Shown here: positions 1,245 to 9,449 of the stretch, one piece after another
Numbering within the stretch: position 1 is the first letter of the stretch
How the letters are laid out: every line of letters starts with the position of its first letter
Assembly (NCBI GenBank): GCA_963977015.1
Contig: CAXBMO010000011.1
Location: 32,001 to 96,000 of the forward strand
Length of the DNA stretch: 64,000 bases
Direction of reading: 5' to 3'
Source of the DNA: an uncultured bacterium
GTDB lineage: Bacteria; Verrucomicrobiota; Verrucomicrobiia; Verrucomicrobiales; DEV007
Translations under genes and position numbers: made by a program
Notes under the pieces: generated by a model
Database searches by the model: none
What the model saw: only the letters and a program-made list of their open reading frames with translations
What the model was told of the DNA's origin: nothing

Positions 1245-2042
1245 CTAGACCGCGATCGGCGCTTTGATTGTCGGGTGTGGATCGTATCCGACCAGCTCAA
1301 AATCCTCGAATCGGAAGTCGTCGATCTCTTTCACTTTCGGATTGATTCGCATCGTGGGTAAATCGCGGAAATCGCGCGCGAGTTGCTCCCGTGTTTGATC
1401 CAGATGGTTCTGGTAGAGATGTAAATCGCCAAACGTGTGGACGAAATCGCCGGGTTTCAGCTCGCAAACCTGGGCGATCATCATCGTGAGCAATGCGTAG
1501 GAGGCGATGTTGAAAGGAACGCCGAGAAACAAATCCGCACTTCGTTGGTAAAGCTGACAACTCAGTTCGCCATCGTTCACATAAAACTGGAACATCGTGT
1601 GGCATGGCGGCAATGCCATTTTCGGCACGTCCACCGGGTTCCAACCGCTGACGATGTGGCGGCGACTAAATGGATTGGTCCGAATCCCCTCGATCAATTC
1701 CGCAATTTGGTCGATTGGCTCCGCGTCGGGGGCGCCCTGCCAGCGACGCCATTGCTTCCCATACACCGGACCCAAATCACCATTTTCGTCGGCCCATTCA
1801 TCCCAAATCGTCACCTTGTTTTCACGAAGATAGCCGATGTTCGTATCGCCCTGCAAAAACCAGAGCAACTCGTGGATAATCGAGCGCAGGTGCAGCTTCT
1901 TCGTGGTCAGGCAGGGAAACGTGTCCCGCAGATCGAATCGCGCCTGGGCGCCAAACACGCTCAGCGTGCCAGTTCCCGTGCGATCATCGCGTGACTTTCC
2001 CTCGTCCAGAACCAGGCGCAAAAGGCGGTGGTATTCTCGCAT
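1245..2042 (-). CDS. thyA: Thymidylate synthase
   Basis: [37 protein letters not shown] motifs. Confidence 0.98.
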
Positions 2043-2130
2043 GAGGATGAGGTTAGGCCAAAGCTGGGAGCTATTCCACTTTTCTCAAGGGAATCCCGCA
2101 ACTCGGCGAAAAGGCCTGGGTTTAAAGGGC

Positions 2131-3408
2131 ATGAAGAACTTGATTTCAGCCTTCTTTTTCGTCCTGGGACTGGGGGCATTTTCCGCGCAGGCACAGCAAC
2201 TACCACTCAATCAACCGGTCCCGGACGTGACCGCATATGATGCTGATGGGAATGCGTTTTCGTTTCGGGACAACCTGAAGGGCGAGACATCAGTGGTTGT
2301 TTTTGGCTGCCTCACTTGACCACCGTTTCTTCGAAACGTCCCCGGTCTGGAGACGGTTTATCAGGATTACTCGGGAAAAGGGGTCAAGTTTTACTACGTC
2401 TACAAGGCGTTGGCGCACCCGGAGCGGGATGGCTTCGTTCAGCCACTGACGTTGGAGGAGCGGCTCATGCACGTGAAGGAAGCGGCTCGCCGGTTGTCCA
2501 CGCAATGGACGTGGTTGGCGGATGCGCCGGATAATCAGATAAAGAACGCATTTGGGAACCGAAACAACTCGGAGTTCGTGATCGATCCGGAAGGGACGAT
2601 CGTTCGTGCCCGGACGTGGAGCAATGAGGAGGCGCTGCGTAAGGATTTGGCGGCGATGGTCGGAAGCGTGGAGACGCCGACGAAGGTGGCGGATCTTGAA
2701 ATGAAATCGCTTCCCGCCGAGCGCGATGGGGCGATTGCGACCAATGTGGTGCCGAGGGTTCCCGCTCCCGAGGGCGCCAAACCGCTCAAGGTTACCGCGT
2801 CCGGCGACGGCCCGTTCTATCTGAAGCTGCGGGTTGAGGCGAACCCGGATTTGCTGCGAACCGGGACGGGAAAAGCGAGACTGGGCTTTTGGCTGGACCC
2901 GATTCATCAGGTGCATTGGAACAACCTGGCGGAACCCCTGAAGTTTCGGGTGATTGCGGAGAACGGAACCACCGTCGAACCTGCGATCGGCACGGCTCCG
3001 AAAGTCGAGGTGGAAGCGGACTATGATCCTCGCGAATTCGCCGTAGAGATTTCCGGCGCGAATCGGAGCATGCCGATCAAGGTCGAGGTGAGCTATTTTC
3101 CCTGTCATGACGTCGACAAATGGTGCCGGGCGGTCACTCAGGAGTTTTCCATCGTTTTGGAGGAAGATCGACACGCTGGAAAGCCATCATCCCAGATGAG
3201 AGGGCGAGGGACCGGAGGAAAAGGCCCGGCGGGAAGCCGGGGCCCGAACCCCGAGCGGTTTCTTGCCAGAGCAGACGCAAATGGGGACGGAAAGATTGCC
3301 AAAAGCGAGGCACGGGGAAAGATGGGGGAACGCTTTGACCAAATGGATCTGGACAAGGACGGCTTCGTGACTCTGGAAGAGATGAAGCGGCATTTCTCGA
3401 ATCGCTAG
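2131..3408 (+). CDS. Secreted selenoprotein: deiodinase-like thioredoxin-fold domain (CxxU) + Cys-pair domain + C-terminal EF-hands; TGA at 2317-2319 read as Sec
   Basis: The end of track ORF 1837-2319 and ORF 2410-3408 are in one frame; read-through gives FGCLT-U-PPFLRNV...FYYVYKALAHPE, matching deiodinase FGSCTUPPF and YIxEAHP; signal peptide MKNLISAFF...AQA; SECIS-like hairpin follows the TGA. Confidence 0.85.
2334..2359 (+). promoter_or_regulatory. Putative bacterial SECIS element
   Basis: CGTC-C-CC-GGTCT-GG-A-GACG stem-loop; GGUCU apical loop begins 25 nt after the TGA and resembles the E. coli fdhF SECIS apex. Confidence 0.65.
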
Positions 3409-3530: not shown

Positions 3531-3633
3531 GGCCGATTCCGAGTAAAATGTTGGCCCAGGAGGCTCCGCCAGCAATGGGGACGCGTCTTGAATCGGGCGA
3601 ATCATGCCCTCAATTCCTTGAGCAACATCATTG

Positions 3634-6600
3634 ATGAATCGGAAACTACTCCCACATTATCCACATGTGCAGGGCAGCCTGCACCAGCCTAATTTGGAAC
3701 GTGATGCCTGTGGCGTCGGCGTGGTAGCCCACGTCAAAGGCGAACGGAGCAACAAGATCCTGGAATATGGATTGGTCAGTTGTTGCAATGTGATGCATCG
3801 CGGGGCGATGGAGGCTGATGGGAAGACCGGCGATGGCGCCGGCGTCCTGACCCAATTGCCCTACAAGATCCTGTTGCCTGCGGCCGAGGCCATGGGCGTG
3901 AAGCTGGACGACGAGAAGGAACTTGGCGTAGGCGTATTCTTTTTGCCACAGGACGCGGAATGCCGGACCAAGGCAAAGGTGATGACGGAGGGAATCATCC
4001 GGCAACACCAGATCGAGGTGATCGGCTGGCGCGAGGTGCCAGTCAATCCCGATGAATTGGGCGAGAAGGCTCGCAAGACCATGCCGGTGATTGAGCAACT
4101 GCTGGTGAAGCGCGGCGCGGACATGGACGAGAAGAAATTTGAGCGGAGCCTCTATATGACGCGCCGGGAAATCGAGCGAAAAATGAGGGAGGAGATTCCC
4201 GACCTTTACATCAGTTCCTTTTCCCATCGCACCATTTCCTATAAAGCGTTGGCTTTGCCTCCGGCGATGCGGAAGTTTTATGCGGATTTGACGAATCCCG
4301 ACTACGAAACGGGGATTTGCCTCTATCACCAGCGATTTTCCACCAATACGTTTCCAAGCTGGCCTCTCGGACAGCCCTTCCGGATGTTGGCTCACAACGG
4401 TGAGATCAATACCGTGAGAGGCAACCGCAACTGGCTCAATTGCAGCGAAAAGGACTTCAAGAGCGATGTCTGGGGGGATGAGATCGATCTCATGACCGAA
4501 GTGGTGCATTCCGATGATTCGGATTCGGCCAGCCTCGATGCCGCTTTGGAGCTGCTCGTCCTTTCGGGACGCAGTGTGCCTCACGCGATGGCGATGTTGG
4601 TTCCTGCCGCTTGGCGAATTGACCCGACCACGCCAAAACCAGTTCAGTCCTTTTACGAATATCATCGCTGCTTCCAGGAGCCTTGGGATGGTCCCGCCTC
4701 CCTCGTGTTTACCGATGGCCGAGTGGTCGCGGCAACGCTTGATCGCAACGGGTTGCGTCCATCTCGCTTCAAATTGACGGAAGACGGCATCTTTTCGCTT
4801 GGATCAGAGGTTGGCACCATCGGACTGGATGATGAGAAAGTGATCCGGAAGGGGCGGCTTGCTCCCGGCCAGATGATCTGCGTAGACACGATCGACGGAG
4901 TGTTTTATTCCGACGACGAAGTGAAGGATGCGCTTGGTGCGAAGCAACCCTACGGGAAGTGGCTGGAAGAAAACCGGGTTCACTTCAGCGAGTTGGTCAG
5001 CTCTGAGCCGCAGGCGCCAGAGGGTGACCTGGATGTGATGTCCCTGACGCAGAAGCAGGTGACCTTCGACATCAACAAGGAGGAGGTGGGAGAGATTCTC
5101 GCGCCCATGCTGAAAACCGGCGCCGAGGCGATTGGATCGATGGGAGACGATGCCGCGTTGAGCATCCTTTCCAGCCGGCCGAAACTTTTGCTGACCTACT
5201 TCAAGCAGCTGTTTGCCCAGGTCACGAATCCGCCGATCGATCCGATCCGCGAACGGCTCGTCATGTCGTTGAACGTCAATCTTGGCTGGCAACGCAACCG
5301 TCTGGTTGAGAGCCCTGAGCACGCCAGAATGGTTCACCTGGCTTCGCCGTTTTTGCTCGATCATCAGTTGGAGAAGCTGATGAATTTGGAAGGGTTTCCA
5401 TCCCGCAAAATTGATATCACCTGGCCCGTCAGCGAAGGTGCGGCCGGGCTCGAGAAGGCGATCGACCGAATCTCGCGGGAAGCCGAAGAAGCGGCCGATG
5501 CCCACAACCCGATTTTGGTGCTGTCTGATCGAAACGTGGATCACGAACATGCCCCGATTCCCGCAATCATGGCAGTTGGTGCGGTTCACAACCACCTGAA
5601 CCGGGTTCACAAGCGGATGTGGTTGAGCATTGTGATCGAGACTGGAGAAGTGCGGGACACGCACTCCGCTGCCACCATGTTTGGTTTTGGCGCGCAGGCG
5701 ATCGTCCCGTATTTGGCTGTGGACACCATTCGCGAAGCGTTGCAGAACGATCCCCGGAAAAAATTGGGTGAGATCAGTTATGTTGACGGGGTGAAGAACT
5801 ACCTTTCTGCCTTGGAGAAAGGTGTGCTCAAGATCATGAGCAAGATGGGGATCAGTGTGCTTTCCAGCTACCAGGGCGCTCAAATTTTTGAGGCCGTTGG
5901 TGTGGGCTCGAAAGTCATCGATCGTTGCTTCACGGGAACCTCTTCCAAAGTTGAGGGAGTCGGATTTGAAGAGATTGCGAACGAGACGCTTGACCGCCAT
6001 CGCCAGGCTTTTGGCAAGGCTGTGCCAGGCGGAGAGGAAGTTGCGCTGAAGCTCGACGATCCGGGTTACCTGAAGTTTCGGCGCGATGGTGAGCGCCACG
6101 GGATGCCAAACCCGATCATCAAAAATTTCCACACCTTCATTAAATCGGGCGATCCGGTTCAGTATGAACAGTACGTCGAAGACCTGAAGTCGCACCATCC
6201 GGTCGCGCTGAAGGACGTGATGGATTTCAATTCGCCCAATGACCCGATTCCGGTCGAAGAAGTGGAGCCGAAGGAAGAAATCTTGCGACGCTTCACCACC
6301 GCAGCCATGTCGCTGGGCGCGTTGAGCCCGGAAGCGCATGAGATGCTGGCCGTGGCGATGAACCGGATTGGGGGACGTTCCGATTCCGGAGAGGGAGGAG
6401 AAGACAGTCGCCGATTTACGCGCTACACGGAAGAAACTGCCAAGGATACGATTTTCGAGGCTGGAGATTGGGGGAATTCCAAGATCAAGCAGGTCGCTTC
6501 CGGTCGTTTTGGAGTTCACACCCATTACCTGGTCAACGCCGAGCAGTTGGAGATCAAGATGGCTCAAGGCGCGAAGCCGGGAGAAGGTGGTCAACTGCCG

Positions 6601-8217
6601 GGTGACAAGGTGAATGAGCTGATCGCACGACTTCGGCACACCCAGCCGGGCGTGACCCTGATTTCGCCTCCTCCTCACCACGATATTTACTCGATCGAGG
6701 ATCTCGCCCAACTGATTCATGACCTGAAAGAAGTGAACACTTCGGCAAAGGTCGTCGTGAAATTGGTTGCGGAAGCCGGAGTCGGCACCGTTGCCGCAGG
6801 TGTCGCCAAAGCGAATGCGGACGTCATCCTGATTTCCGGACACGACGGCGGAACCGGCGCGTCTCCGATCAGTTCGATCAAGCACGCGGGGCTTCCCTGG
6901 GAACTCGGTCTCGCCGAAGCTCAGCAGGTTCTCATGCTGAACAACCTGCGCGAACGGGTGATTCTTCGGACCGACGGCGGCATGCGCACCGGGCGCGATA
7001 TTGTTCAGGCCGCGCTTCTTGGCGCTGAGGAATACAACTTTGGCACGATCGCCATGATTGCCATGGGTTGCGTTTACGTTCGGAAATGTCACCTCAACAA
7101 CTGTCCGGTTGGCGTCGCGACTCAGGATCCCAAGTACCGCGCCAAATTCAAAGGCGAGGTGGAGCATGTCGTGAATTTCTTCAATGCCGTGGCTGAAGAC
7201 GTCCGTCGGCACCTGGCTCAACTTGGAGTTCGCAAGATGGATGAGATCATCGGGCATCCTGGATTTCTCAAGCAGCGGGAAGTGCCAAATCATCCCAAGG
7301 CGAACACACTGAACCTGGGCGCGATCCTCAAGGATGTCGCCAAAGACGTGGGTGAAGATTTGCCTCGCGCCCATCGTTGGGAGCGGAACGACGGTTTGCA
7401 TGCGGAAGCGCTCGACGTCCGGATCATCAAGGATGTTGCGCAAACTCTGGAAGACGGAAAGACCCCCATTTCCAAGAGTTATCCCGTGGTTAACACCAAC
7501 CGGAACGTTGGCACGCGATTGGCGGGTGAAGTCGCCAAAAAATGGGCCAATCACGGAATTCCGGATGGCACAATTGATCTCCAGTTTTCCGGAAGTGCAG
7601 GTCAGAGTTTCGGCACCTTCCTGTGCGGTGGAATTCGCATGACGCTGACTGGCGAGGCGAATGACTACGTTGGCAAAGGCATGTGCGGAGGTGAGATTAT
7701 TCTCAAAGCTCCAGAGAAGCGCGGCTTTGTTCCTGGTGAAAACTCCATTCTTGGAAACACCGTGATGTATGGTTCAACCGGCGGGAAGCTTTTCGCCAAT
7801 GGCCGGGCCGGAGAACGTTTCTGCGTTCGCAACTCTGGTGGAACCGCAATCGTTGAAGGCGTGGGAGACCACGGGTGCGAATACATGACGAATGGTTTTG
7901 TGGTGATTCTCGGTCGCACCGGAAAGAACTTCGGAGCCGGCATGAGCGGGGGCACCGCCTACATTCTGGATCGGAAAGACCGTTTTGATACGCTGATCAA
8001 CCCGGAGATGATTGAAGTGGTCGATCTTGAGGACGAGGCAGACATCGCGGCGGTCAAAGCTCTCATCGAGCAACACCGCGACTACACGAACAGCGAACGT
8101 GCCGAAGAGGTGCTTTCTGACTGGGATGCGTCGCTCAAGCTCTTCCGCAAGGTTCAGCCCAAGAGAAAGGCCGCCCCAGAGAAAGCTGAAGAGCCAACGA
8201 AGAAAGCCGCAGTCTAG
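3634..8217 (+). CDS. gltB: Glutamate synthase large subunit
   Basis: ERDACGVG amidotransferase start, HQRFSTNT, AHNGEINT, KMAQGAKPGEGGQLPG, 3Fe-4S motif CVYVRKCHLNNCPVG, C-terminal GXGXG domain. Confidence 0.98.
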   Translation: MNRKLLPHYPHVQGSLHQPNLERDACGVGVVAHVKGERSNKILEYGLVSCCNVMHRGAMEADGKTGDGAGVLTQLPYKILLPAAEAMGVKLDDEKELGVGVFFLPQDAECRTKAKVMTEGIIRQHQIEVIGWREVPVNPDELGEKARKTMPVIEQLLVKRGADMDEKKFERSLYMTRREIERKMREEIPDLYISSFSHRTISYKALALPPAMRKFYADLTNPDYETGICLYHQRFSTNTFPSWPLGQPFRMLAHNGEINTVRGNRNWLNCSEKDFKSDVWGDEIDLMTEVVHSDDSDSASLDAALELLVLSGRSVPHAMAMLVPAAWRIDPTTPKPVQSFYEYHRCFQEPWDGPASLVFTDGRVVAATLDRNGLRPSRFKLTEDGIFSLGSEVGTIGLDDEKVIRKGRLAPGQMICVDTIDGVFYSDDEVKDALGAKQPYGKWLEENRVHFSELVSSEPQAPEGDLDVMSLTQKQVTFDINKEEVGEILAPMLKTGAEAIGSMGDDAALSILSSRPKLLLTYFKQLFAQVTNPPIDPIRERLVMSLNVNLGWQRNRLVESPEHARMVHLASPFLLDHQLEKLMNLEGFPSRKIDITWPVSEGAAGLEKAIDRISREAEEAADAHNPILVLSDRNVDHEHAPIPAIMAVGAVHNHLNRVHKRMWLSIVIETGEVRDTHSAATMFGFGAQAIVPYLAVDTIREALQNDPRKKLGEISYVDGVKNYLSALEKGVLKIMSKMGISVLSSYQGAQIFEAVGVGSKVIDRCFTGTSSKVEGVGFEEIANETLDRHRQAFGKAVPGGEEVALKLDDPGYLKFRRDGERHGMPNPIIKNFHTFIKSGDPVQYEQYVEDLKSHHPVALKDVMDFNSPNDPIPVEEVEPKEEILRRFTTAAMSLGALSPEAHEMLAVAMNRIGGRSDSGEGGEDSRRFTRYTEETAKDTIFEAGDWGNSKIKQVASGRFGVHTHYLVNAEQLEIKMAQGAKPGEGGQLPGDKVNELIARLRHTQPGVTLISPPPHHDIYSIEDLAQLIHDLKEVNTSAKVVVKLVAEAGVGTVAAGVAKANADVILISGHDGGTGASPISSIKHAGLPWELGLAEAQQVLMLNNLRERVILRTDGGMRTGRDIVQAALLGAEEYNFGTIAMIAMGCVYVRKCHLNNCPVGVATQDPKYRAKFKGEVEHVVNFFNAVAEDVRRHLAQLGVRKMDEIIGHPGFLKQREVPNHPKANTLNLGAILKDVAKDVGEDLPRAHRWERNDGLHAEALDVRIIKDVAQTLEDGKTPISKSYPVVNTNRNVGTRLAGEVAKKWANHGIPDGTIDLQFSGSAGQSFGTFLCGGIRMTLTGEANDYVGKGMCGGEIILKAPEKRGFVPGENSILGNTVMYGSTGGKLFANGRAGERFCVRNSGGTAIVEGVGDHGCEYMTNGFVVILGRTGKNFGAGMSGGTAYILDRKDRFDTLINPEMIEVVDLEDEADIAAVKALIEQHRDYTNSERAEEVLSDWDASLKLFRKVQPKRKAAPEKAEEPTKKAAV

Positions 8218-8252: not shown

Positions 8253-9368
8253 CTACTGGCCTGCCGGAACCGTCTGATCTTGCACGATGGTTCCCGTGCC
8301 CAGGAGTTGCTGTGCGAGGAAGGTTTCGACCAGCTTTTGAATGGCCGGGCCAAACCCTCGGCCGTGTCCGCCATCCTGTACCGTCACGAACGTGGCGCTC
8401 ACACCACTGGCTTCCAGCTTCTTCTCGAAATCTACGGATTGAGGGTAGGGGACGAGGTCGTCTTTGGTGCCGTGGACGATGAGCGTCGGTGCGTCATCTG
8501 CGGTCACATGTGTGATGGGCGAAGCGTTGTTCGCCCGATCCTTGTTTGCTTGAATGGCGCCACCAATCAGGATCGATTCGGGTGAATTCGGAGCATTGTG
8601 ATCGATCTTGCTGGGGTGATCGTTCATCGTGAGTAACTCGGTCGGTCCATAGTAGTCTACGACGCAGGCAACGTCGCTCGATTGGCCGGTATGCGGACCA
8701 ATGGTTCCCTCCAGATCGGCGACTCCGTGGCTGACCCCCAACATCGCAACCAAATGGCCGCCGGCGGAGGAACCCCAGACCGCAATTCGGTCAGGATCCA
8801 GATTGTATTTTTCAGCGTTGGCGCGAATCCAGCGAATCGCGGCTTTGCAGTCGTGAATCTGAGCGGGCCACGGGGCCTCGGTGCTCAATCGATACCCGAT
8901 CGAAACGCCCGCATAGCTGCCCGTTGTCGCGAGCCGGGCTACCTTGGTGCCGTTGCTTTTGTCGCCTGCCTTCCATCCTCCTCCATGAATCCAGCAAACC
9001 ACGGGAAGTGGATCGTCTCCGAGCTCCTTGGGGAGATACAAGTCCAGCTTTTGCTTGGGATTGTCGTTCCCCGCGTAGTCCAGATCGGAAAGCTTTGTGA
9101 ACTGATCGTTCCCGACATTTCCGCGTTCCGGACGAGCCGGATCATTCCGTTTCGTCACCGCAAGGTGCTCTTCCAGCGAAATCGCGCCGTCCTTGTTCGT
9201 GTCGACGCGTTCGAAGTTCTTCTGGAGAGGCTGGGGCAACTCATCCTTGGTCAACTTGCCATCCTTGTTCCGGTCCCAATTTGTGAATCGGCGATCCGGT
9301 TCCACTTGGGCGAGGCCGGAGAGGGGAAAGGCGATGGCGAGAAGAAGTAACGAGAGATGGGGCTTCAT
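8253..9368 (-). CDS. Secreted alpha/beta hydrolase (HSL-like esterase) with N-terminal EF-hands
   Basis: Signal peptide MKPHLSLLLL; DRNKDGKLTKDE and DTNKDGAISLEE EF-hands; IHGGGW, GSSAGG, HGTKD, GGHG. Confidence 0.9.
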   Translation of the reverse strand: MKPHLSLLLLAIAFPLSGLAQVEPDRRFTNWDRNKDGKLTKDELPQPLQKNFERVDTNKDGAISLEEHLAVTKRNDPARPERGNVGNDQFTKLSDLDYAGNDNPKQKLDLYLPKELGDDPLPVVCWIHGGGWKAGDKSNGTKVARLATTGSYAGVSIGYRLSTEAPWPAQIHDCKAAIRWIRANAEKYNLDPDRIAVWGSSAGGHLVAMLGVSHGVADLEGTIGPHTGQSSDVACVVDYYGPTELLTMNDHPSKIDHNAPNSPESILIGGAIQANKDRANNASPITHVTADDAPTLIVHGTKDDLVPYPQSVDFEKKLEASGVSATFVTVQDGGHGRGFGPAIQKLVETFLAQQLLGTGTIVQDQTVPAGQ

Positions 9369-9449
9369 GAGATAGGGGTTAAAACTGAAGAAAGCGGTCA
9401 AAGTTTCGCAGCAAACCGAGAAAAAGCGGGATGGAACCGTTGCTAACGG

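Follow-up and report, generated by a model that had tools for sequence, protein, structure and literature searches.

A stretch of 64,000 nucleotides from contig CAXBMO010000011.1 of an uncultured bacterium of the Verrucomicrobiales (hereafter the window) holds at 2131-3408 of its plus strand a gene which almost certainly encodes a hidden selenoprotein, with selenocysteine (Sec, U) predicted at codon 63. With the TGA at 2317-2319, its one internal TGA, read as Sec, the gene is translated into 425 residues and runs through VVFGCLT-U-PPF, including C60 and U63. The predicted protein joins a deiodinase-like redoxin domain to a second domain, which is very probably homologous to the alpha domain of DsbD and ScsB, and it is this second domain with its conserved Cys pair that sets the family apart. 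We propose that the protein may be exported and act as a self-recycling selenium reductase that counters oxidative damage in the envelope, a putative function for which we consider the chances to be even. Deiodinase-like selenoproteins of bacteria, predicted since 2005, have so far lacked a known function; the fused partner domain points to the electron source and thereby makes the function testable with one soluble protein.

Predicted selenocysteine at the in-frame TGA

An earlier reading of the window, made from its letters (the sequence-only reading), had claimed that the gene continues through an in-frame TGA and is split by gene calling. Translation of the complete frame bears out the TGA, the C60/U63 pair and the motifs quoted at that time, and standard gene calling does return the 2410-3408 piece only; the database entry for the window's protein (P0002) begins at M113. 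The TGA is bridged unchanged by contigs of three public DNA runs (X1, X2, X4), one of which may be the source sample. The contig of run X2 is a variant, which carries 20 other differences in 1.6 kb and an intact TGA.

The host genome contains the complete Sec machinery on which the proposal depends: selA, selB, selD and the tRNA-Sec gene (selC) all score over their cut-offs, and host selD itself has an in-frame TGA. Among 60 relatives searched, seven carry a full-length homolog with one TGA each. A selA match was found in all seven carriers (six over the cut-off, partial in G014) and is lacking in 29 of the 60 relatives, which as kin are not independent. The host SelD (G000:C5:255715-256644, minus strand; L010) shows the motif C-A-G-U, and this CxxU type is described as a minority form in the Global Ocean Sampling (GOS) paper (PMC2398784).

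Codon 63 was compared among homologs; the searches that supplied their Sec-type rows had been started from sequences close to this gene. When species genomes were scanned with the portion downstream of the TGA as query, 22 loci were obtained from Verrucomicrobiota, Planctomycetota, Acidobacteriota and one unclassified bacterium. In total, 29 of the 30 genome loci reach the codon and all 29 have TGA (27/27 after removal of two duplicates, this locus included). The metagenome scan, with an alignment of the Cys form as query, confirmed 531 of 603 stretches; the best 80 were kept and are TGA loci without exception (80/80), in a ranking that favours relatives of the first sequence of the alignment. 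Neither TAA nor TAG occurs at codon 63 in the 27 genome and 80 metagenome loci, and C60, L61 and T62 are invariant in all 95 distinct Sec rows. The protein database yielded 3239 candidates, of which 661 match at E<=1e-5; these are 661 clusters at 90% identity. Of the best 120 matches, most of them unnamed or 'hypothetical', 20 span the site (19 with CxxC, one with DxxN), 99 begin at residue 67 or later and one was unplaced; in a wider homolog set CxxC was found in 41 of 59. Most of these homologs have TGA or Cys at this position, and the family is widespread, with at least 531 metagenome stretches besides the database clusters, but nearly invisible, as 99 of the best 120 database matches start past the Sec codon.

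As had been described in the sequence-only reading, a stem-loop with a GGUCU apex is present 3' of the TGA, its loop beginning 24 bases downstream on the stem 2336-2357. Taken alone, this candidate selenocysteine insertion sequence (SECIS) is unremarkable, its single-sequence folding not being above chance (z 0.24 to 1.74). This point weighs against Sec decoding and would suit a true stop, whether by a pseudogene, a sequencing error or a split gene. Comparison across homologs gives a different picture. In 26 distinct rows 91.8% of the cells are paired (shuffles 84.6%, slid pairings 35-50%), both-sided changes occur at three of the eight hairpin pairs, and RNAalifold recovers the same stem unaided. 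All six pairs are formed in 72 of 88 distinct rows versus 5-6% (at most 14%) after synonymous recoding. At codon 8 past the UGA only CCC or TCC is used and at codon 10 only NTG (88/88 distinct rows), and the first two Pro codons past the UGA make use of all four forms. Judged by this codon choice and by the comparison with synonymous recoding, the constraint acts on the RNA. The hairpin is conserved across homologs and kept at silent sites. The loop G is found in 27/27 genome rows and in 61/62 distinct metagenome rows, and hairpins at an equal distance accompany other UGA genes of the host. One metagenome member (L135:3298-3345) has the TGA and the full stem without the loop G at its usual place. 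A loose genome-wide SECIS filter was dropped as too permissive, since it passes 558 of the 2810 motif-bearing TGAs of this genome.

A true stop would have to account for the same TGA in every distinct genome locus from three phyla and in every metagenome locus kept, for Cys in the homologs, for the silent-site constraint on the SECIS, and for selA matches in all carriers versus none in 29 of the 60 relatives. Judged from these comparisons it is extremely improbable and already refuted in practice. The Sec machinery, TGA or Cys in the homologs and the conserved SECIS instead support the earlier proposal of a single exported, deiodinase-like selenoprotein of thioredoxin fold.

Domain architecture of the predicted protein

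Domain 1 scores over the Pfam cut-offs of Redoxin and AhpC-TSA and under that of T4_deiodinase (PF00837, 23.3 versus 27), which all 27 members match weakly; by these profile matches the family is a relative of the PF00837 deiodinase-like proteins. For NF038285 (deiodinase_rel) the score is 59.3 against a cut-off of 250, and five Cys homologs reach 46-71. The AlphaFold2 model of residues 24-354 is a confident two-domain unit (pLDDT 94.7, pTM 0.90). The best match of its domain 1 among 48,161 chains is Dio3 (4tr4; Z 18.8, rmsd 2.3, 156 residues, 23% identity), and ResA follows at Z 17.2. The model thus predicts a thioredoxin fold that contains the deiodinase insertion and places Sec at the beta1-alpha1 turn. 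Dio T169, Y197 and H202 are retained, as is Pro-Pro-Phe after Sec, and the position of Trp207 is Phe/Tyr. In contrast, Dio3 S167 corresponds to Cys (C60) in 95/95 distinct Sec rows and E200 to Leu (L94) in 94/95 (Val in 1/95), H219 falls in a gap of the profile alignment, and E259-R260 are replaced by Asn-Ser. The Ser167-Glu200-His219 network of the deiodinases is consequently not present in domain 1. Dio activity is lowered or lost when S167 or E200 is mutated (PMC7506546).

These replacements bear on the proposal of a reductive dehalogenase of halogenated aromatics (iodo- or bromo-phenols and -tyrosines), in which deiodinase chemistry would be combined with a built-in recycling domain. The Dio3 match, the retained residues with an aromatic one at W207, and the mostly marine metagenomes among the runs with this DNA speak for it. 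Deiodination is, however, unlikely because Ser167, Glu200 and His219 are missing; furthermore, the scores lie under the Pfam and NCBIfam cut-offs and a dehalogenation-related neighbour was not found among 29 neighbour frames scanned. We regard this function as very doubtful, and of the two activities suggested in the sequence-only reading the dehalogenase is weakened, whereas the thiol oxidoreductase is supported.

Domain 1 does not fit the TlpA/ResA/DsbE type either, as GCLTU stands in place of WCxxC, of which the first Cys is the attacking residue, and the cis-Pro is not found. The thioredoxin cis-Pro is located before the last strands; at this position Asn is present (N146 in 87/94 rows), with Pro one residue earlier in 70/94. 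Domain 1 appears to use the Sec position of deiodinases and peroxiredoxins, yet by the residues that define them it lies outside the deiodinase, peroxiredoxin and TlpA families. A subgroup of three loci (L143, L151, L196) has YKYLAHA for YKxLAHP and keeps TGA and hairpin.

The sequence-only reading had recognized the redoxin part correctly and missed domain 2 with the second Cys pair in the middle third of the protein. C325 and C332 are conserved in 92 of the 92 Sec rows reaching the loop. Profile comparison by hhalign of domain 2 with a ScsB-alpha profile, built from 31 domains of the host and its relatives, gave 87.8% (E 3.3e-6; reversed control 1.2%), in a register that aligns both Cys and the HWNN motif. 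Pfam DsbD_N matches 11 of 27 members at E<=0.1 (best E 3.9e-5) and stays under the Pfam cut-off in this protein. The model of domain 2 is an all-beta sandwich, for which Foldseek lists DsbD-alpha chains at ranks 4, 5, 10, 11, 13 and 16 (E about 0.01). Structural alignment gave Z 6.5 over 120 residues for ScsB-alpha (6c29) and Z 6.7 at 18% identity for the C-terminal domain (CTD) of plant SOQ1 (7djl). Two results weigh against the assignment: unrelated Ig-like sandwiches reach Z 7.8 versus 6.3-6.7 for DsbD-alpha, ScsB-alpha and SOQ1-CTD, with Foldseek E>0.001, and plain hmmsearch with the domain-2 profile found 0 of the 31 ScsB-alpha sequences. With both sides considered, homology to DsbD/ScsB-alpha remains very probable on the profile evidence. 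Compared with the known alpha domains (PF11412; PDB 6c29, 1jpe, 1vrs), with which it shares the profile match including both Cys and H-x-x-W-x-N and the Ig-like beta-sandwich, domain 2 differs in being fused behind a redoxin, in lacking a membrane domain and in its Cys spacing of X6; identity to the solved alpha domains in structural alignments is <=13%.

The two Cys/Sec pairs were further compared in a quick tree of 93 near-complete rows of proteins and genome loci, with fragments left out. Of the 77 rows whose CxxC/CxxU is intact, 76 keep the second pair, and of the 16 in which the first motif is broken, 15 are without the full second pair. Against a functional link it has to be said that the coupled loss is mostly one clade of 14 rows (support 100) plus one more case, and that two rows, P0049 and P0243, are uncoupled. 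The covariation analysis (326 rows, 223 effective) revealed few inter-domain pairs, none of which joins the two Cys pairs; those found connect domain 2 to the deiodinase insertion (L106-F339, N139-H348 and, weaker, E109-D329, H114-P324). Coupled loss and covariation together are suggestive, not proof, of a link between the two pairs.

The 14-homolog clade (P0209, P0212, P0216, P0219, P0222, P0224, P0225, P0227, P0230, P0233, P0236, P0241, P0252, P0261) has lost redox residues in domain 1 as well as in domain 2, all four or all but one, often showing D-L-T-D, and keeps both domains and most conserved motifs. In the five members scanned a right-handed beta-helix domain stands in front of the module. 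This composition suggests a binding role for the module. In a further rival reading, domain 2 might be a binding or scaffold domain with a structural disulfide, domain 1 working alone and being reduced by a separate envelope thioredoxin. Such a role would agree with the clade, which keeps the module without redox residues and so points to some non-redox role, and with a fold match that is unspecific, Ig-like folds being common. The alignment of both Cys and HWNN with ScsB-alpha and the loss of the second pair exactly in the clade in which the first motif is lost argue against it, and we consider it quite improbable.

Electron flow and proposed function

For the proposed self-recycling reductase we infer all four electron-transfer steps. 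U63 would attack as the nucleophile, because it stands where deiodinases have Sec and peroxiredoxins their peroxidatic residue, and not at the first position, as in the thioredoxin-type selenoproteins of the host. C60 would resolve U63 to a selenenyl-sulfide, which C325/C332 would re-reduce in the way DsbD/ScsB-alpha domains reduce envelope redoxins, and the oxidised alpha domain would be recharged by the gamma domain of ScsB, the normal partner of an alpha domain. The invariant K92, H96, H114, N146 and E148 may form a non-canonical site, and the most likely job would be the removal of oxidative damage in the envelope, either a hydroperoxide or an oxidised sulfur centre.

The only DsbD_TM gene of the host encodes a full ScsB-type protein (G000:C12:129192-131486, minus strand; L072, L074, L076; no lone CcdA was found in the host). 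It has an in-frame TGA at W-U-L-T-C of the gamma domain (C12:129474-129476) and its own hairpin. In 16 of 29 such loci read, host included, the gamma-motif codon is TGA. Sec-bearing DsbD-gamma domains have already been listed from ocean metagenomes ('Trx-like 2', cd02953; PMC2398784), and Caulobacter ScsB keeps TlpA, PrxL and ScsC reduced, as well as PprX via TlpA (PMC3322552). A stand-alone ScsB-alpha-like gene (G000:C1:377900-378235, plus strand; L073) encodes a possible further partner of the envelope chain; a second DsbD_N match of similar size occurs in many relatives. Five more thioredoxin-fold genes of the host (Table 1), exported or membrane-anchored, carry in-frame TGA codons and hairpins, one for a peroxiredoxin (TxxU) and four of the UxxC type. 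Sec is first in the thioredoxin-type UGA genes of the host (WUxxC) and last in the peroxiredoxin (TxxU).

Several observations weigh against the proposed course. The peroxiredoxin motif PxxxTxxC/U is absent from domain 1, where V56 and C60 occupy the Pro and Thr positions, and Asn146 stands at the Arg position of the host peroxiredoxin, as counted from the FVID strand. In peroxiredoxins the Arg at this position is catalytic. In the seven relatives with the gene, the ScsB codon is TGA in four and Cys in one, was not located in one and not found in one. Neither ScsB nor another redox gene was found as a conserved neighbour among the neighbour frames scanned. Finally, in SOQ1, the one studied protein joining thioredoxin-like and nDsbD-like domains, electrons run the opposite way (bioRxiv 2024.11.01.621559).

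By analogy to SOQ1 and DsbD, electrons might pass from a membrane donor to the C60-U63 redoxin, acting like a soluble DsbD-gamma, and on to C325/C332, whereupon the alpha domain would reduce client proteins (disulfides or methionine sulfoxide, as reported for SOQ1). This reverse direction is the main rival. SOQ1's Trx-like domain reduces its nDsbD-like CTD one way, the CTD having methionine sulfoxide reductase activity (bioRxiv 2024.11.01.621559), and the same CTD is among the fold matches of domain 2. Domain 2 holds the family's most conserved surface motifs (DP, HWNN, DPREF), and Cho et al. propose a chain of separate proteins from CcdA over a thioredoxin-like protein to ScsB-alpha (PMC3322552). 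In opposition to these points, Sec is second in the motif, as against first in the gamma-type and thioredoxin-type selenoproteins of the host, Asn occupies the cis-Pro position, and the sole DsbD_TM gene found in the host is the full ScsB without a lone CcdA. Taken together, the reverse direction appears rather unlikely.

The self-recycling reductase can be extended to a largely selenium-based reductive chain of the envelope in marine Verrucomicrobiales and relatives, with this widespread and uncatalogued family as its end point, in which a rewired deiodinase-derived domain and its DsbD-alpha recycling domain would be wired to the Sec-bearing ScsB and would act on a substrate class new for selenoenzymes, possibly halogenated aromatics. 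This extension is tentative, and as a whole we hold it to be unlikely. If true, it would give the first named physiological reductant of a bacterial deiodinase relative, and a soluble, self-contained model for the recycling of deiodinase-fold enzymes.

Known relatives and surroundings of the gene

Bacterial deiodinase-like selenoproteins were described in 2005 by Zhang, Fomenko and Gladyshev, who suggested a redox function (PMC1088965). With the prokaryotic members (PF00837; PMC1088965; GOS set PMC2398784; NF038285) the present family shares the thioredoxin fold with deiodinase insertion, the Sec position, the TUPPF and AHP motifs and a bacterial SECIS, as well as the export signal and the EF-hands found in some of them. 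According to term searches of the GOS dataset and the deep-Sep supplements, published members show SxTU/SCSU and YIREAHP, whereas this family has CLTU and YKxLAHP; it adds the fused alpha domain with the second Cys pair. Reviews list the deiodinase-like motif as UxxC (PMC13188914, PMC9312934). The same term searches found CLTUPP, VHWNN and DPREF absent from the GOS supplements and CLTUPP, GCLT and VHWNN absent from those of deep-Sep; the GOS fusion figure shows other domains than redoxin-DsbD-alpha, and neither a CxxU deiodinase-like nor a redoxin-DsbD-alpha entry is present in Table 1 of PMC13188914 (119 families). No description of a deiodinase-like domain of CxxU type in fusion with DsbD-alpha was found in the accessible literature; BSepDB (PMC13326102), table S9 of PMC4807772 and subscription journals may list members as 'deiodinase-like'.

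In comparison with Dio2/Dio3 (PDB 9h48, 4tr3/4tr4), which are membrane-anchored, this protein is predicted to be soluble and exported with its own recycling domain. The lumenal region of plant SOQ1 and NHLRC2 (bioRxiv 2021.03.16.435614; 2024.11.01.621559) likewise joins, within a single exported chain, a thioredoxin-like and an nDsbD-like domain that each bear a Cys pair, so that the family may be viewed as a bacterial parallel, and both SOQ1 domains are among the fold matches (7djk for domain 1, 7djl for domain 2). The present protein has no NHL propeller and no membrane anchor, carries Sec at the second position and has a deiodinase-type instead of a TlpA-type domain. We treat the likeness as an analogy. 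AhpC-TSA and DsbD_N fusions, hence the same Pfam pair, also occur in unnamed ESM Atlas clusters of Acidobacteriota and Actinomycetota, whose feature scores of 0.84-0.86 are leads only; since redoxin and DsbD_N are fused elsewhere, the pairing of the folds is not unique.

Table 1 Features of the selenoprotein gene in the window and further TGA-containing genes of the host.
Feature	Position	Strand	Basis
Whole gene, 425 codons, one in-frame TGA as selenocysteine	2131..3408	+	Translation; full-length homologs with one TGA
AAAGGG, purine-rich stretch directly ahead of ATG, possible ribosome-binding site	2124..2129	+	Sequence; function inferred
Probable signal peptide, residues 1-21, ending Ala-Gln-Ala	2131..2193	+	Hydropathy; similar homolog N-termini
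Domain 1, deiodinase-like redoxin (thioredoxin fold + deiodinase insertion), residues ~24-180	2200..2670	+	Pfam; structural alignment to Dio3
C60-L-T-U63 active-site motif (TGA 2317-2319)	2308..2319	+	Invariance of C60, L61, T62 in distinct Sec rows
Bacterial SECIS hairpin, loop GGUCU 2344-2348, conserved G at 2345	2336..2357	+	Pairing across homologs
Y91-K-A-L-A-H96-P97, counterpart of deiodinase YIxEAHP (Glu to Leu)	2401..2421	+	Profile alignment; Sec rows
Extended linker, residues ~181-215, packing on domain 2	2671..2775	+	Model secondary structure; covarying pairs T204-Y298, V206-D299, I202-H326
Domain 2, DsbD/ScsB-alpha-like Ig fold (probable), residues ~216-347, DPxxxVHWNN and DPREF motifs	2776..3171	+	hhalign; Pfam DsbD_N; weak fold matches
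Second redox pair C325-X6-C332 (putative)	3103..3126	+	Sec-row conservation; alignment with ScsB-alpha Cys pair
Two EF-hand loops, residues 382-393 and 406-417, after Gly/Arg-rich spacer	3274..3381	+	Pfam EF-hand over cut-off
Further TGA gene of host	G000:C2:5984-6352	-	
Further TGA gene of host	G000:C18:95001-95378	-	
Further TGA gene of host	G000:C1:180662-180949	+	
Further TGA gene of host	G000:C11:142328-142591	+	
Further TGA gene of host	G000:C2:344553	+	

At the N-terminus a Lys is present together with a hydrophobic core, whose best 11-mer has a hydropathy of 2.65, and with Ala-Gln-Ala at 19-21; judged by hydropathy, residues 1-21 resemble a signal peptide and the protein is probably exported. 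No promoter or terminator of the gene was found above chance. The runs listed for this DNA include no RNA run, which has no bearing on expression. The gene is flanked by a divergent frame at 1245-2042 (minus strand), presumably thymidylate-synthase-like, and by a downstream frame at 3631-8217, which we take to be glutamate-synthase-like. A conserved neighbourhood was not found, the largest cluster of similar neighbour frames among 24 loci scanned comprising two loci, and Pfam assigned 28 neighbour frames (45 proteins given, 17 of them family members) to unrelated families. Elsewhere in the host genome, a Cys-form deiodinase-like gene (G000:C5:263658-264149, plus strand; L075) with SWTC, YIREAHP and a signal-like N-terminus is the back-to-back neighbour of the tRNA-Sec gene.

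The EF-hands appear to form an accessory, putative calcium-binding tail. It is absent from some homologs, and other tails are present in L052, L054, L059, L060, L061 and L067; matches to Lanmodulin and XopAW were rejected, their EF-hand matches being far under the cut-off. In other homologs the module occurs in fusion with esterase, dienelactone-hydrolase, arylsulfotransferase-like, YHYH, Lcl_C or DUF3179 domains (among P0024, L143, P0146, P0147, P0143, P0194 and P0172), and in P0122 it is doubled. A nearby exported, esterase-like frame of the window (8253-9401, minus strand) has a similar EF-hand pair at its N-terminus, and such tails are common in relatives.

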